A stretch of DNA of 64,000 nucleotides, from positions 111,433-175,432 of the forward strand of contig CBDBZY010000036.1 of assembly GCA_965213685.1 (NCBI GenBank), read 5' to 3'. Shown one piece after another: positions 7,303-48,800 of the stretch. Both the position numbers and the translations under genes were made by a program. Under the pieces are notes generated by a model that worked only from the letters and a program-made list of their open reading frames with translations, made no database searches and was not told the origin of the DNA. This DNA comes from a bacterium (GTDB taxonomy: Bacteria; UBA8248). How positions within the stretch are numbered: position 1 is the stretch's first letter; each line of letters begins with the position of its first letter.

Positions 7303-9597
7303 CTACGCGCCATTTTTCTCCCGTCGTTCATTCATGGCGGCCAGTATCTTCTCCGGCGTTATCGGCAACGTCGTGATCCGCACGCCGACGGCGTCATACA
7401 CCGCGTTCGCGATCGCGGCCGAGGTGCCCAGCTGCGCCATCTCTCCCAGCCCTTTGGCGCCATACGGCCCGGTGGGGTTTTCCGTCTCGATGAGCACGAC
7501 CTCGAGTTCCGGCAAATCCTGGGTCGTGGGCAGCTTGTAATCGAGCCAGTTCGCGTTCACCGGCTGGCCGTCCTCGACCTGAAAATCCTCCGTCATGGCG
7601 TAGCCCACGCCCATCAGCGCGCCGCCGTCCAGCTGGCCCAGCGCACCCGCGGGGTTCACGATGGTTCCCACGTCGTTCGTGCTGACGATGCGCAGCACCT
7701 CGAGCGCGCCGGTTTCGACGTCCACCTCCACCTCGGCCACCTTGGCGCCGTAGGCGTAGGCGGCGGACCAGTTGCCATACCCCGTCACGGGGTCGGGCGT
7801 CTCGCTCGGGGAATCATAGGAGGACGCCGTATAGACGGCCTCGCTGCCCTCCTTGTCATATATCTTCATGTAGGCTTCGGCGTGCGTCACCTGCTTCTCG
7901 GGAGAGCTGGTGACGAAAATCCGGCCCTCGCGCGCGTCCAGATCGTTCGGGTCGCATTCGAGCAACTCCGCAGCGCCCTGGAAGAGCATGTTTCTCGCCT
8001 CCAGCGACGCCAGGCGCGTGGCCTGGCCGTCGATGGTCGTCGTTCGGCTGCCCCGCACCCCCCATCCGTAGGGATTCACCGAGGTGTCGCCGTTGATGAT
8101 CCGCACGTCCTCCACGCGCACGCCCAGCGTCTCCGCGCAAATCTGCGCCAGCGTGGTGTCCGAGCCGTTGCCCATCTCGATGGTGCCCGAGAGCAGCTGC
8201 ACGGTGCCGTCCTTGTTCATCTTGATGAACGCGCCGGCGGTCTCCGGACCCATCGCGCGCGCCCCTGTGAAATGCACCGCCGCACTCAGCCCGTAGCCGC
8301 GCCTCTTGCCGTTGCGGCCCTCCTGCCTCTCGCGCCACGGCACGCGCTTGACCGCTTCCTGCACGCATTCCGAAACGCCGCAACTCGTGATCTTGGCGCC
8401 GATGATGGTAGTGTCGCCCCTGCGCACGAAGTTCTTCACCCGAAACTCCGCCGGGTCCATGCCGATCTCCTCGGCGTGTTTCTCCATGGCGACCTCCGAG
8501 CCGAACGAATAGCCGCCATTGCCCACGCCGCGCATCGCACCGCCAGGCGGCACGTTGGTGTAGACGACGTCGGCGTGATGGCGATAGGCCTTGTAGTGGT
8601 AGAGGCTCCCCCCCATGTGCGCCGTGATGCCGCCGACCACCGGTCCGTAATCGGAGTACCCGCCGTTTTCCACCACCATTTTGACGTCGCGCGCCAGGAG
8701 CATCCCCTCCTTGTCGGTGGCGATGCGGAAGGTGTGGAACTGCTTCGTCCGATGGGTGCCGAGGAGAAACTCCTCCTCGCGCGTGTAGTAGAACTTCACG
8801 GGGAGGCCCAGCCTCTTCGCCGCGATGATGGAGAGGAAATCGATGTTGAACTTGCTCGTCGCCTTGCCGCCGAAGCCCCCGCCCACGTAGTTCGTTACCA
8901 CGCGAATGTTGGCCTCGGGAATCTTGAGGAGCTTGGAGAAATACTGGCTCGAAAGGCTCGGGCACTGCGAGGAGTTGTAGACCGTCACGTCGCCTCGCGG
9001 AGACCACTCGGCGATGGACACGTGCGCCTCGAAGGAGGCGTGCATCTGGCGCGAGGAGGCGGAGGTGAGCTCGCTCACGTGGTGGGCCTCCTCGAACATC
9101 CTGTCCACCTCGCCGAACTCCATGTGCTTGGTGAACGCGACGTTGTTCGGCTTCGCCTCGTGGAGGACGGGGGCGCCCTCCCGCATCGCCTCGAAGGGGT
9201 CGAAGACAGCGGGGAGCTCCTCGTAGTCAACCTCGATGAGGTCGAGCGCCTCCTGCGCGACGTCCTCGGAGGTCGCCACGACGGCCGCCACCGAGTCGCC
9301 CACGTAGCGCACCTTGTCCGTGGCGAGGGGGCGCTGATCGTAGCAGACCGGCACGACGCCCCAGACCACCTCGTCCGGCACGTCTCTGGACGTCATCACG
9401 AGCTTGACGCCGGGGAGCCTCTCCGCGCGGCTGGCGTCGATGTTCCGGATGCGGGCGTGGGGGAGCGGACTCCCCAGCAGCTTGCCGTGGAGCATCTTGG
9501 GCAGGAGGAGGTCCAGGGTGTACATGGCCTGGCCCGTCACCTTCTCCGGCGCATCGACGCGCGGCACGCTCTTTCCGACGTATGCGAGATCAGTCAT
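7303..9597 (-). CDS. Xanthine-oxidase-family molybdopterin-binding (large) subunit
   Basis: VGKSVPRVDAPEKVTG, GGGFGGK, AMRGVG, EMGNG, GQLDGG and GAKGLGE (catalytic Glu). GGAGG RBS before the ATG at 9597. Confidence 0.92.
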   Translation of the reverse strand: MTDLAYVGKSVPRVDAPEKVTGQAMYTLDLLLPKMLHGKLLGSPLPHARIRNIDASRAERLPGVKLVMTSRDVPDEVVWGVVPVCYDQRPLATDKVRYVGDSVAAVVATSEDVAQEALDLIEVDYEELPAVFDPFEAMREGAPVLHEAKPNNVAFTKHMEFGEVDRMFEEAHHVSELTSASSRQMHASFEAHVSIAEWSPRGDVTVYNSSQCPSLSSQYFSKLLKIPEANIRVVTNYVGGGFGGKATSKFNIDFLSIIAAKRLGLPVKFYYTREEEFLLGTHRTKQFHTFRIATDKEGMLLARDVKMVVENGGYSDYGPVVGGITAHMGGSLYHYKAYRHHADVVYTNVPPGGAMRGVGNGGYSFGSEVAMEKHAEEIGMDPAEFRVKNFVRRGDTTIIGAKITSCGVSECVQEAVKRVPWRERQEGRNGKRRGYGLSAAVHFTGARAMGPETAGAFIKMNKDGTVQLLSGTIEMGNGSDTTLAQICAETLGVRVEDVRIINGDTSVNPYGWGVRGSRTTTIDGQATRLASLEARNMLFQGAAELLECDPNDLDAREGRIFVTSSPEKQVTHAEAYMKIYDKEGSEAVYTASSYDSPSETPDPVTGYGNWSAAYAYGAKVAEVEVDVETGALEVLRIVSTNDVGTIVNPAGALGQLDGGALMGVGYAMTEDFQVEDGQPVNANWLDYKLPTTQDLPELEVVLIETENPTGPYGAKGLGEMAQLGTSAAIANAVYDAVGVRITTLPITPEKILAAMNERREKNGA

Positions 9598-9876
9598 GGA
9601 ACCCTCCACTCGTGTGCGGCGTCGAAGCGGGCGCGCCGCAGGGTGCAATCCGCCGCGATTCGTTTATTTCTCCATATCGTACGGTTCCATTATTATAGCC
9701 ATCCGAGAGAGGAGATGGCAACTTGAAAAATGAAAAAACGCCGAGCCAACCACGAGCGCGCGCGCCCCGCTCCGCCTCCGCCCCGGTTTGTGATTCGCCG
9801 CCCGCCATGCTAGAAGGAGGAGGATCATACACATTCTCCCACCATTCCCGAAACGACTGAACGGGAGGGACGCGCG

Positions 9877-10624
9877 ATGCCCATTCGTTTTGATTTCCAG
9901 GGCCGGAAGGTCATCCTCACGGGTGCGGCCGGTGCCATGGGAAGCCGCATCCTCCAGGGATACCTCGAGGCCGGCGCCCGGGTGTTCGCCACCGACAGGG
10001 CGGGCGCCGCCTTTGACGCGATGGCCGGCCCATCCGACCAGCTCTTCAAGCGCCCCTGCGACCTGGGCCGACGTAGCCGCCATTCGCGCGACCATGCGCG
10101 AGGCGCTCCGGTGGCTCGGCGGCTGCGACGTACTCGCCAACGTGGCGGGCTACATGCCGATTCGACCGCCCCTCGAACTCCGGGAGGAGGACTGGGAACC
10201 GGTGCTGGGCGTGAACCTGCTGGCGCCGTATTTCTGCATACAGGAAACCATCGAGGCGCTGAAGGCCTCCGGGACGGGGCGAATCATCAGCTTCGCGTCC
10301 ATCGCGGGCAAAATGGGGGGCATCGGCCCGAACCTCACCTACGCCGCCGCCAAGGCGGGCCTGCTCGCCATGACGTTCAACCTCGCGCGCGAGCTCGCGA
10401 AGACGGGGGTGACGATCAACACGGTGCAGCCCGGCCCGGCCGACACGGGCCTCCACTTTGAATCCCCGCCCGAGATGCTGGCGAACGCAGCGAACGCCCA
10501 CCCGATGGGCAGGCTCACGACGCCCGACGACGTATGGCAGACCGTCCTGTTTCTGTCGAGCGAGGAGGCCGCGCACATCAACGGAGAGGCGGTGGATGTG
10601 AACGGCGGCTTCTGGACGGACTAG
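9877..10624 (+). CDS. SDR family oxidoreductase, interrupted by a +1 frameshift at about 10065 (probable sequencing error)
   Basis: TGAAGAMG in one frame joins NVAG, YAAAK and VNGG in the next frame across the GGG at 10065-10067. Total length is 3n+1. Confidence 0.8.
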
Positions 10625-10641
10625 CCGCGGAGGAGAACGCC

Positions 10642-11487
10642 ATGTCGACCGGAAACCGGAAAGGATACGCGAACCCCGACCTGCTCTGGTCGCCCGCGCA
10701 GCTCAACGAGCGCATGGACGACCCGAACCTGCGAATCATCGACGCGCGCACGGGCGAGCGCTACGCGATGGGGCATATCCCCGGCGCCCGGCACTTCGAT
10801 CTGTATGGCGTGAACAGCGATGACTCCAGCGAGGCGTCGCTGCGGAACTTCTTCGCCATGTGGGCGTTCCTGCTGGGAAACCGGGGGGTGTCGTTCGAGA
10901 ACGCCATCGTTTTCTATGACGACATCGTCGGCAACACGAGCGTGCGCGGGTTCTGGATGCTCGAGCTTTTCGGCCACAAGGACGTCCACGTGCTCGACGG
11001 CGGCTACAGCGCCTGGGAGCGGGCGGGATTCGAGACCACGCGGGACGCCGAGCCGCCCCGGCCCGCCGCTTTCGAGATGGCGTTCGAGCCGCATCGCCTC
11101 GCCACGCGGGAGGACGTGATGCGCGCCATCGGCGAGGAGGGCCACGTGCTGCTCGACACCCGCTCGATAGAGGAATGGGAAGCGCGGCAGGTGCGGGCGC
11201 GGAGGGGCGGCATCATCCCGGGCGCCGTCTGGCAGGAGTGGCTCCAGCACCTGACGCCCGAGGGGGAGATGAAGCCCGCCGCCGCGCTGCGGGCGCAGTT
11301 CGAGGCGCTGGGGATCACGCCCGAAAAAGAGGTGACCGCCTACTGACAGACGGGCTACCGTGCGGCGCACGGCTATTTCGCCCTGAGGCTGCTGGGCTAC
11401 CCGAACGTGAGAAACTACATGAGCTCCTGGAAGGAGTGGGGCAATCGCGAGGATACGCCCATCGCGCAGGCGCAGGGCGCCGACTGA
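10642..11487 (+). CDS. Two-domain rhodanese/sulfurtransferase (SseA-like), probable selenoprotein (Sec at TGA 11344-11346)
   Basis: [25 protein letters not shown] and GIIPGA motifs, then [39 protein letters not shown] in frame. The TGA occupies the catalytic Cys position. Confidence 0.88.
11358..11372 (+). promoter_or_regulatory. Bacterial SECIS-like hairpin after the rhodanese UGA
   Basis: CCGTGC-GGC-GCACGG stem-loop with a G-led loop about 17 nt downstream of the UGA. Confidence 0.6.
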
Positions 11488-11691
11488 GGCGAGGGGCGGC
11501 GGGGGCCGAACCGGTCAAAGGACCTGCGCCATCATGAGGGGGGCGGGGTTTGTATCCCGGAAAATCTTCCCCTACAATAAGAAGATAATGATGCTTCTGG
11601 AGGTCAGGGCGCTTTCACGGCGGCCCGGGAACGGTTCTTCGGGTTGGGCCGTTTCATTTTCATTCATCTATGGATTTCCTGGAGGTTCGCA

Positions 11692-12708
11692 ATGAAGAGG
11701 AATTTCGCTCGAATCATCCTGGCCGCGGGGATCGCTTGCGGCCTCTCGGCGGCGGGTCTCGCTGCGGCGGCGCCCACGCTTCGTCTCGGCGCGGCCAGCA
11801 ACACCGGCGGCATGATAGTCTTCGTTGGAGTAGACAAGGGCTTTTTCGCCAAGAACGGACTCGACGCGAAAGTCGTCGTGCGCAACACGGGCGCCCAGCT
11901 CACCAAATCCCTCAAGGCCGGCCAGATTGACTTCGCCCCCGCCGCCTTCACCAACCTGCCTGCGGCACTCGAGCGCGGCATCAAGGTTCGCGGCGTCGTG
12001 GGCTACGTCGGCGGCTCCTACAAGAAATCCACCACCGACGAGATGGTGGGCATCGCCGTGCGCCCCGGCGCCGGCATCCAGACCATCAAGGACCTCGAGG
12101 GCAAGAAAATCGGCTCCACCTTCGGCTCCACCGGCGACCTCTACCTCCGCACCCTGCTGGAGAAAAACGGCATCGGCGTAGGCGGCGTCCGCCGGATCAA
12201 CGTGCGTCCGCCGAGCATCGTCTCCCTGTTCGATTCCGGCGGCGTCGACGCCATGGTCGCGTGGGAGCCCTACCTCACCCGGATGACCGACAAGGTGAAG
12301 GGCGCCTCGCTCGTGTCGCGCGGCGGCGACTACGTCTGCTTCTGCGCCGGCATGCACGGCGTGCCGGAGCGCGTGTACAAAGACAAGAAAGCAACCCAGG
12401 CGTTCGTCAACGGCATGTCCGAGGCGGCCGCCTACGTGCGGGACGCCAAAAACAGCGACGAGATCGCCAAAATCGGGGCCCGCTACGTTCGCGGCATGGA
12501 CGCCGCCCTCATCAAGCGCACCATCAAATGGTGGACCTACGACCCGCGCCTGGGCGAGAACACGCTCAAGGCCTTCAACTTCTCGGTCAAGCAGCTCATC
12601 GCCCAGAAGAAGATGAAGCGGCCCTACGACCCCAGAAAATACTTCGATTTCCAGTTCATCAACCGGACGATGAAAGAACATCCGGAGTGGTTCCAGGATC
12701 TGAAATAA
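11692..12708 (+). CDS. NitT/TauT-family ABC transporter substrate-binding protein
   Basis: Signal peptide, DKGFFAKNGLD, DLEGKKIG..FGSTG and VAWEPY motifs. GGAGG RBS. Confidence 0.88.
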   Translation: MKRNFARIILAAGIACGLSAAGLAAAAPTLRLGAASNTGGMIVFVGVDKGFFAKNGLDAKVVVRNTGAQLTKSLKAGQIDFAPAAFTNLPAALERGIKVRGVVGYVGGSYKKSTTDEMVGIAVRPGAGIQTIKDLEGKKIGSTFGSTGDLYLRTLLEKNGIGVGGVRRINVRPPSIVSLFDSGGVDAMVAWEPYLTRMTDKVKGASLVSRGGDYVCFCAGMHGVPERVYKDKKATQAFVNGMSEAAAYVRDAKNSDEIAKIGARYVRGMDAALIKRTIKWWTYDPRLGENTLKAFNFSVKQLIAQKKMKRPYDPRKYFDFQFINRTMKEHPEWFQDLK

Positions 12709-12729
12709 CCCGAATCCTCACGCGCCCGC

Positions 12730-12762
12730 ATCCGCGCCCCGCTCTTTTGCCGGGGCGCGGAT
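12730..12762 (+). terminator. Perfect 12-bp stem-loop after the SBP gene (mRNA-stabilising or attenuating hairpin)
   Basis: ATCCGCGCCCCG (12730-12741) pairs with CGGGGCGCGGAT (12751-12762). Confidence 0.55.
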
Positions 12763-12790
12763 TGCGCTTGAATAGGAACCGAGAAGCCAT

Positions 12791-13585
12791 ATGCCCCCCA
12801 AACTGGTTGTCAACGGGCTGTCGCACCACTACCCGGACGAATACACGGGAGAGGACGTCCACGCGCTCGACAAGGTGAGCCTCGCCGTGGAGGACGGCGA
12901 ATTCTCCGCCGTCGTCGGTCCGAGCGGATGCGGGAAGACCACCCTGCTCAACATTCTCGCGGGGCTTCTCCCCCACACCGAGGGCAGCGTTCAGGTGGAC
13001 GGCAAGGAGGTGCGGGGGCCGGGACCGGATCGGGGGGTGGTGTTTCAGGAACACGCGATCCTCCCCTGGCGCACCGTCGGGAGAAACATCGGCCACGGCC
13101 TTGAGATTCAGGGGCTTCCCCGGGAGGAGAGGGAGAGAAAGGTGCAGGAATTCGTCGACCTCGTCGGCTTGTCCGGCTTCGAGGATCGCTATCCGCATGA
13201 GCTTTCCGGCGGCATGAAGCAGCGCTGCGCACTCGCGCGCACGCTGTGCGCCAACCCCGTCGTGATGCTGATGGACGAGCCCTTCGCCGCCGTGGACGCG
13301 CAGACGAGAATCACCCTCCAGGAAGAGTTGAACCGCATCGCGATTGCGACGAAGAAGACGATCCTCTTCATCACGCACAATGTGGATGAGGCCGCGTTTC
13401 TCGGAGATCGCTGCTTCATCTTCTCGCGCCGACCGGGAAGGCTGAAGGCCACCGTGAAAATCGACATCCCGCGCGGGAAGCGCATATGGAAGGACGTGCT
13501 GTCGGAGCGCGCCTACAGCGAGCCGCGCGACGAAATCCTCCGCCTCGTGCGCGAGGAGGTGTTTGACGATGACGAGGGAGAGTAG
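12791..13585 (+). CDS. NitT/TauT ABC transporter ATP-binding protein
   Basis: Walker A GPSGCGKT, signature LSGGMKQR, Walker B LMDEPF and H-loop ITH. Confidence 0.93.
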   Translation: MPPKLVVNGLSHHYPDEYTGEDVHALDKVSLAVEDGEFSAVVGPSGCGKTTLLNILAGLLPHTEGSVQVDGKEVRGPGPDRGVVFQEHAILPWRTVGRNIGHGLEIQGLPREERERKVQEFVDLVGLSGFEDRYPHELSGGMKQRCALARTLCANPVVMLMDEPFAAVDAQTRITLQEELNRIAIATKKTILFITHNVDEAAFLGDRCFIFSRRPGRLKATVKIDIPRGKRIWKDVLSERAYSEPRDEILRLVREEVFDDDEGE

Positions 13586-47903: not shown

Positions 47904-48800
47904 CTAGCGAAACAAGGCGATCATCGCCCCGCCCGCCACGACGAGGCACGCGGCAAGCGCTGTTCTGGTGCCCACGCGCTCCATGTTTCCCAAAAACAGA
48001 AAACTGAACGAAACCACCCACAGGGGAGTCATCCGGCTCAGCGGCAAGACACTCGAAACCATGCCCGTCGCAAAAGCCGTCCACATGAGGAACGCGGCGG
48101 CGACGTTGAACGCCGCCCCCATGAGCAGGCATTTGAGCGTTGCGGCGTCCGCCCTGAGCGCCCCGCCGCCGGGCACCAGGCGTCTCGCCGCCAGCATGAG
48201 CAAAAGGCCTGTGCCGAACGCGACGCCAAAACCCAGATACGGCGCCTTCTGCTGGGCGAGACCCAGCTTGGCGAATACCGGCACCAGCGCAAAACAGACG
48301 GATGAGGAGAGGGGCAAGAGGTAATCTCTTGGAATCCGATTTTTCCGCCCCCTCCCCTTCCCCTTCGGCCAGGAAAGCAGAAAGACGCCCCCGACAATTC
48401 CCAAGGTGCCCAGGACGACATGCCCGCCCGGCGTTTCGCCCAGAAAGGCGACCGCGAAAACAACGCCCCAAAGAGGGGTCGCCGAATGGATGGCCGTGGC
48501 CTGGCTCACGCCGAGGCGCTGGATGGCCGAGAAAAAAATCAGGCTCCCGGTGCCGTGGCCCACAACGCCCGTCAGGACGAACCAGCCAAGCGCCCCCGGT
48601 TCGGCGGAAGCCAGGGTTCCCACAAAAAAGGCGGTCGTCAGCCCGGAGAGGCTCACCACCGAATTGAGGACGACGATGCTCGCCAAGGGACTTGCGGTCG
48701 CCATTCCCCGACGCACCAGTATGAGCGTGATGGAGTAGGAGAACGAGGTCGCCAAAGCCAGAAACTCGGGACTTCCCGATGATGACACCCACTCGGCCAT
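47904..48800 (-). CDS. DMT/EamA family transporter
   Basis: About 10 TMs, QRLGVSQA, LGETPG and VLPLSR. Confidence 0.88.
   Translation of the reverse strand: MAEWVSSSGSPEFLALATSFSYSITLILVRRGMATASPLASIVVLNSVVSLSGLTTAFFVGTLASAEPGALGWFVLTGVVGHGTGSLIFFSAIQRLGVSQATAIHSATPLWGVVFAVAFLGETPGGHVVLGTLGIVGGVFLLSWPKGKGRGRKNRIPRDYLLPLSSSVCFALVPVFAKLGLAQQKAPYLGFGVAFGTGLLLMLAARRLVPGGGALRADAATLKCLLMGAAFNVAAAFLMWTAFATGMVSSVLPLSRMTPLWVVSFSFLFLGNMERVGTRTALAACLVVAGGAMIALFR

Follow-up and report, generated by a model that had tools for sequence, protein, structure and literature searches.

The window analysed here, a stretch of 64,000 nucleotides from a bacterial genome (G000), contains a rhodanese reading frame that runs into an in-frame TGA at positions 11344-11346, and the question raised by this locus is whether that codon ends the gene or is read as selenocysteine (Sec). 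The product of the locus is very probably a two-domain, RhdA/TST-type sulfurtransferase with Sec in place of its catalytic cysteine, inserted by means of a recoded UGA codon at position 235 (UGA235) and a hairpin located within the coding region.

The rhodanese gene and its in-frame UGA

The coding sequence was placed at positions 10642-11487 of the forward strand. It begins with an ATG at 10642, a start that matches the N-termini of the orthologues, and a Shine-Dalgarno-like GGAGGAG, read directly from the sequence, is found 6 nt 5' of this codon (10629-10635, forward strand). The mechanical list of open reading frames stops at 11346, as had been pointed out in the first-pass annotation, and the frame was indeed found to go on beyond this point. 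The reading ...EVTAY-TGA is followed by 46 codons up to a second TGA (11485-11487), and the predicted translation comprises 281 residues with Sec (U) at position 235. This read-through protein matches the Pfam family PF00581 in two stretches (E 9.1e-35; 119.6 bits against a cut-off of 22.2) and aligns end to end with the rhodanese structures 1E0C and 1UAR, i.e., it has the two tandem rhodanese domains of COG2897-like proteins. The N-terminal non-catalytic domain corresponds to the best Pfam stretch (residues 17-127; 10690-11022, forward strand), and the C-terminal catalytic domain covers approximately residues 150-274 (11089-11463, forward strand), with borders taken from the alignment to 1E0C and 1UAR and not from a domain call.

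In this alignment the active-site loop is found only in the C-terminal domain, where a catalytic nucleophile opens a loop of six residues. UGA235 (11344-11346, forward strand) falls on this nucleophile, which would be Sec here instead of Cys. Residue 235 aligns with the loop-opening cysteine of both structures, HCQTHHRS in 1E0C and YCRIAERS in 1UAR, as opposed to AY-U-QTGYRA in the window's protein, and the initial description of a two-domain rhodanese with UGA at the catalytic cysteine agrees with both the two Pfam stretches and the position of this residue. From the translation and the 1E0C alignment, the loop U-Q-T-G-Y-R-A, which includes a UxxG motif, was located at 11344-11364 (forward strand). 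The best solved relatives of the protein are the A. vinelandii RhdA (1E0C; E 5.4e-46, residues 9-274) and a Thermus rhodanese (1UAR; E 1.8e-43). Both have the same two-domain fold and an equally long active-site loop (CQTHHRS versus UQTGYRA), although they use Cys where the window's protein would use Sec, and HH is found in the loop in place of the GY observed here. The equivalog model of the 3-mercaptopyruvate sulfurtransferase SseA (NF008557) gave 135.1 bits against a cut-off of 250; by these matches the gene is related to SseA and is not filed as a 3-mercaptopyruvate sulfurtransferase equivalog.

In the mechanism that we propose, UGA235 would be recoded during translation, with the hairpin inside the coding sequence, starting 11 nt 3' of the codon, recruiting the SelB-GTP-Sec-tRNA(Sec) complex. 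Sec would then be inserted and the ribosome would continue for 46 codons, completing the UQTGYRA loop and the rest of the catalytic domain, before terminating at the next UGA, 47 codons after UGA235. By analogy with rhodanese chemistry, the selenolate may take up sulfane sulfur from thiosulfate or a persulfide to form an Se-S intermediate and pass the sulfur on to an acceptor, a reaction in which Sec would surpass Cys both in nucleophilicity and as a leaving group.

Orthologues were searched for in 40 related genomes in addition to the window's own genome. These relatives are labelled Nitrospinota, and several of the names or run labels point to sponge metagenomes. Among the 22 genomes of the same genus, 21 were found to have an orthologue that is 83-88% identical and carries one in-frame TGA, whereas in the remaining genome (G005) the orthologue is cut by the contig end at residue 198. 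The TGA occurs at the identical codon in all 20 orthologous loci that were read, the window's own copy included, and it is also present in four more distant MAGs, namely a genome of a second genus with a 70% identical orthologue (G023, locus L044) and three MAGs labelled Nitrospinota or 'bacterium' (L071-L073; 74% identity); these counts come from close kin and hence do not represent independent events. The true terminators of the 20 loci are TAG in 12, TGA in five and TAA in three of them. No in-frame stop was observed in the orthologue of genome G024 (65%) or in the class-level homologues (about 50%).

Pairing of Cys with TGA among homologues had been suggested as a check of the Sec reading, and the two were found to be paired at codon 235. 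Cys occupies the position of UGA235 in seven Cys-form loci (L045-L049, L052 and L053), which read Y/L-TGC/TGT-Q(T/G)..., as well as in all eight full-length database homologues that were fetched. The loops of the Cys forms read PY-C-QTGYRSAHAY or CQGGYRSAH.

Gene neighbourhood and possible roles

A gene for an SDR-family oxidoreductase is located directly upstream of the rhodanese (9877-10624, forward strand, stopping at TAG 10622-10624) and is probably part of the same operon. Compared with an orthologue, the window's copy has an additional base in a run of GGG near 10065, which divides the gene between two frames. The SDR gene lies directly upstream of the rhodanese in 20 of the 20 related loci, and the same order is found for L045, the Cys orthologue in G024, and for the Sec orthologue in G023. 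The SDR-rhodanese pair therefore appears to be older than the switch from Cys to Sec. Upstream of this pair, a divergent gene encodes the large subunit of a xanthine-dehydrogenase-family Mo-hydroxylase (7303-9648, reverse strand), which reached 616 bits, below the cut-off, with the 4-hydroxybenzoyl-CoA reductase alpha model; the same arrangement was observed in 17 of the 20 loci. On the 3' side of the rhodanese lies an SsuA-family sulfonate-type ABC transporter (11644-13585, forward strand). An SsuA-family binding protein together with an ABC ATPase follows the rhodanese in 12 of the 20 loci, two of which have the binding protein only.

The gene could be a genuine selenoprotein gene and yet function in selenium trafficking, by supplying Se to SelD, or in selenite detoxification, and not in sulfur transfer. 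A selenoprotein-rich genome such as this one must handle selenium, rhodanese can carry selenium in vitro, and a weak partial match (41 bits, cut-off 200) was found to ExtH, a rhodanese encoded in an operon for selenite/tellurite reduction. However, selD, selA and selB are found on other contigs with none of them near the rhodanese, whose neighbours are instead the SDR, the Mo-hydroxylase and the sulfonate-type ABC transporter. In addition, the Cys orthologue of G024 occurs in the same gene context, and the module is therefore not dependent on Sec. We consider a role in selenium handling to be unlikely and favour sulfur transfer by a Sec enzyme.

As to what this sulfur transfer might serve, it can be speculated that the SDR-rhodanese module predates the Sec switch and that the Sec-rhodanese either provides the terminal sulfido or selenido ligand of the Mo hydroxylase or mobilises sulfur from host-derived organosulfonates. 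This suggestion is a long shot; if true, it would tie the use of Sec by sponge symbionts to the maturation of the Mo cofactor or to the breakdown of sulfonates.

Decoding of UGA235

A reading in which UGA235 is a true terminator would require the 234-residue product to be functional and the downstream frame to be kept as an RNA element or a small ORF. Proteins of exactly 234 residues that end in ...TAY make up 25 of the 120 best-matching database clusters, and in the absence of selenium a stop at the UGA is the expected default. Entries of this length are, however, the usual output of gene callers for any selenoprotein, and the truncated product would end before the active-site loop, so that the end of the catalytic domain would be missing as well. 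Those of the 234-residue clusters that have a name are given as 'sulfurtransferase' or 'rhodanese-like' protein from Nitrospinota. In a quick maximum-likelihood (ML) tree of 118 rows, the 25 truncated clusters group with the query in a single clade (SH-aLRT 100) that lies within the Cys forms; this tree was midpoint-rooted, was obtained by a quick search with every row cut back to the region preceding the active site, and left out one partial sequence (P0113) and two sequences with no loop motif for trimming (P0102 and P0109). Judged from sequence, these clusters represent the same rhodanese gene, cut short at the UGA during gene calling, and the nested position of the Sec-form clade is as expected for a single Cys-to-Sec change.

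The codons downstream of the UGA were compared in 24 distinct coding sequences which had been pre-selected by a TGA-containing motif, a set that is uninformative on the frequency of the TGA itself. Of the 39 codons after UGA235, 28 never change their amino acid, and synonymous variation is seen at 17 of these 28. For codons 245-274, the pairwise comparisons of the same sequences gave 2270 synonymous versus 921 nonsynonymous differing codons. This pattern fits a translated sequence under purifying selection. The 39 codons also remain in frame and correspond residue for residue to the Cys homologues, and in-frame variation that is mostly synonymous therefore fits translation and not a purely RNA function. 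Termination at UGA235 as the normal fate of this gene is accordingly very unlikely, and a product that extends through the catalytic domain is preferred.

A putative SECIS hairpin, CCGUGC-GGC-GCACGG, is present at 11358-11372 (forward strand), where it starts 11 nt after the UGA; the hairpin claimed in the first-pass annotation is thus found at this distance, with its synonymous sites constrained, and its assignment rests on this constraint and on its position. It is formed by CCGTGC (11358-11363), a GGC loop (11364-11366) and GCACGG (11367-11372), and a seventh base pair, an A-U at the base of the hairpin, is present in most of the orthologues. Codons 236-244 have a mean synonymous entropy of 0.13 compared to a gene mean of 0.67, which is the lowest value among the 245 nine-codon windows, and the corresponding value in the 20-locus set is 0.14. 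The hairpin stretch is nucleotide-identical among the Sec forms down to 70% protein identity, whereas the Cys forms (..UACCGCUCGGCCCACGC..) are unable to form the hairpin. The stem is created by residue differences, with A241 and G244 in the Sec forms as opposed to S and either A or T in the Cys forms. It is identical in 22 of the 24 distinct sequences, while the other two (L026 and L027) have a C.A mismatch, and no compensatory change was observed in the stem among these 24 sequences.

The folding energy of the hairpin is -9.1 kcal/mol (z -0.01), and 93 out of 200 shuffled sequences fold as well. Folding energy was dropped as evidence for a SECIS element, the stability being equal to that of shuffled sequence. 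Because the energy is at chance level and compensatory changes were not seen, the support for the hairpin comes from conservation and position, and not from stability or covariation. A scan of 11250-11500 against Rfam, with E up to 10, gave no SECIS family and two chance-level matches to miRNA and lncRNA models. With its distance after the UGA and the G in its apical loop, the hairpin is a candidate for a bacterial SECIS. The apical loop, GGC, is without the U of the GGUC loops found in several other genes of this genome.

A crude scan of the whole window for an in-frame TGA combined with a hairpin returned 18 candidates, and all except the one at 11344 looked like non-coding GC-rich frames. 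No Pfam match was found for the least implausible of the others, at 48303 (forward strand), 18138 and 50023 (both reverse strand); the filter used was a strict one and further selenoprotein genes in the window may exist.

Sec insertion at UGA235 depends on the presence of selA, selB, selD and tRNA-Sec, which the first-pass annotation had named as a point to be checked, and all of these were found in genome G000. The selA (564 bits) and selB (370 bits) genes are located on contig C5, and the tRNA-Sec (78.6 bits) has the anticodon UCA. The selD gene (G000:C31:101342-102000, L051) likewise codes for a selenoprotein and has an in-frame TGA of its own (...VKAGG-U-GSKLG...), and it is frameshifted in this assembly, being spread over three frames with 14 gap positions relative to the orthologue of genome G007, many of which are single-base gaps in G/C runs. 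The breaks in selD are probably assembly errors, because the gene is intact and Sec-type in five out of five relatives and the SDR gene next to the rhodanese also has an extra base in a GGG run, although selD of this genome could still be a real pseudogene.

Genome G000 has at least 14 further genes with a TGA that belong to selenoprotein families. One in-frame TGA is present in seven of the 21 CMD-domain matches and in five of the 12 AhpC-TSA matches. All eight of the CMD/AhpC-TSA TGA genes that were read have motifs of the CxxU or UxxC type or a Prx-like UPPY context, together with hairpins that have G-containing apical loops at similar distances. In ten other TGA genes (selD, the second rhodanese described below, three CMD/AhpD-like genes with CxxU and five Prx-like genes, three of them with UxxC), the stem begins about 10-17 nt after the UGA and the apical loop contains a G, with GGUC loops in several of them. 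By these motifs and hairpins the genome is selenoprotein-rich.

Low-level read-through of UGA by near-cognate tRNAs occurs in bacteria, and UGA235 might be read as Cys, Trp or Gly through such decoding or through a reassigned code. Nothing specific was found in favour of this, and it is countered by the complete Sec pathway and the many TGA genes with CxxU or UxxC, as well as by the constrained hairpin at SECIS distance. UGA also ends the same gene 47 codons further on and terminates five of the 20 orthologues, and therefore the code is not reassigned. Insertion of another residue is thus highly improbable, and Sec is the residue that we assign to position 235.

Reads with TGC or TGT at this codon had been named in the first-pass annotation as evidence against Sec. 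Contigs assembled independently from the runs of three studies have no difference listed at 11344-11346 and thus read TGA, the comparison being one of assembled contigs and not of raw reads. One of these contigs (X1) is near-identical to the window and may be its source, another (X7) has a depth of 14.3 and 95-99% identity, and one run (X5) gave no contig over the stretch. It was also claimed that the other disruptions in the window are homopolymer indels and not substitutions, and this holds in the two cases checked, the GGG run of the SDR gene and the indels of selD, many of which are in G/C runs. The chance that the TGA arose through faulty sequencing or assembly, or by a recent nonsense mutation in what is really a Cys rhodanese gene or a pseudogene, is practically negligible, since the errors that this assembly does have (the SDR frameshift and the many selD indels) are single-base indels rather than substitutions, while the TGA recurs in all 20 loci, the four more distant MAGs and the contigs of three studies and is followed by codons under purifying selection. 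On these comparisons, the TGA at 11344-11346 is not an error.

Relation to predicted selenoprotein families and implications

Rhodaneses with Sec have been predicted before. The Sargasso Sea study of 2005 listed a 'rhodanase-related sulfurtransferase' of COG2897, with three sequences and a predicted SECIS, among 15 new selenoprotein families (PMC1088965), and a rhodanese-related sulfurtransferase is given under cd01449 with eight sequences in the GOS study (PMC2398784). Reviews of 2022 and 2026 (PMC9312934, PMC13188914) describe as many as five forms of rhodanese selenoproteins, each of them classed as predicted. In the table of the 2026 review, the Sec rhodaneses are placed under 'Predicted with high confidence' and none is listed as experimentally verified (PMC13188914); this category corresponds to the statement in the first-pass annotation that they are predicted by surveys and poorly characterised. 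The same review describes form 4 as a 'rhodanese-related sulfurtransferase' with a UxxG motif (PMC13188914).

The window's gene resembles the form 4 family (COG2897 SseA/cd01449) in belonging to the same domain family, in having Sec in place of the catalytic Cys and in its UxxG motif, present here as U-Q-T-G with the in-frame UGA aligned to the Cys of homologues. In both cases Cys homologues are widespread and biochemical characterisation is lacking, and the putative hairpin after the UGA would correspond to the SECIS predicted for the family. It differs from the family description in coming from a defined lineage (MAGs labelled Nitrospinota, several of them from sponge metagenomes) and in having a conserved SDR partner. 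By domain family and motif description, which were the basis of the match in place of the representatives MCY3690685.1 and MQG53192.1, the gene is a new member of the already predicted form 4 family. Two NCBIfam selenoprotein models for other rhodanese domains with Sec, rhodanese_LYCAU (NF041203, motif CxU) and TsoB (NF045694, motif UxxxxU), scored far below their cut-offs (36 versus 115 bits and 17.5 versus 805 bits, respectively), and by score and motif the window's rhodanese is not a member of either. In form 1, for which a representative from Geobacter sulfurreducens is given (PMC13188914), Sec is at the rhodanese catalytic position as it is here, but the motif is UxxS.

The UxxS motif of form 1 was found in a paralogue in the same genome, and the window's gene, with UxxG, is only 33-34% identical to it. 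This second two-domain rhodanese (G000:C12:69384-70199, L050) has a TGA at the catalytic position (LY-U-RLSHRAS) and a hairpin of 9 bp with a GUC loop, 10 nt after its TGA, and most of the same-genus genomes have this TGA in their counterpart of the gene as well. A Cys-form paralogue of the same rhodanese subfamily (G000:C6:11200-12078, L052; LCQGGYRSAH) is 43% identical to the window's protein, so that related sulfurtransferases occur in this organism in a Cys and in a Sec version. The assembly itself is about 8.0 Mb in 71 contigs compared to 2.9-4.6 Mb for the same-genus genomes.

BSepDB places three MAGs (given as Nitrospinota, Nitrospinaceae and Nitrospinae; GTDB phylum UBA8248) in the top ten of bacteria by number of selenoprotein genes, with 48-54 of them (PMC13326102), and these MAGs are possibly of the same lineage as the window's genome. 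A sponge-metagenome study reported selA and selB to be enriched in symbiont bins (PMC5649159).

The Sec rhodanese family has been predicted since 2005 and the relatives of this lineage are already known to be selenoprotein-rich; the gene described here does not change what is known of Sec decoding or of the range of selenoprotein families. What is useful are the 25 truncated clusters, the conserved pair with the SDR gene and a natural Cys orthologue in the same context. The call matters mainly for annotation, where at least 25 public protein clusters are 234-residue truncations and the enzyme's catalytic half is therefore absent from symbiont gene catalogues. The Cys orthologue of G024 (65%) and the Sec orthologues, which share their gene context, together with the second Sec-rhodanese paralogue in the same genome, also provide a natural comparison of Cys and Sec, and the question of what Sec buys a sulfurtransferase may therefore become experimentally approachable.
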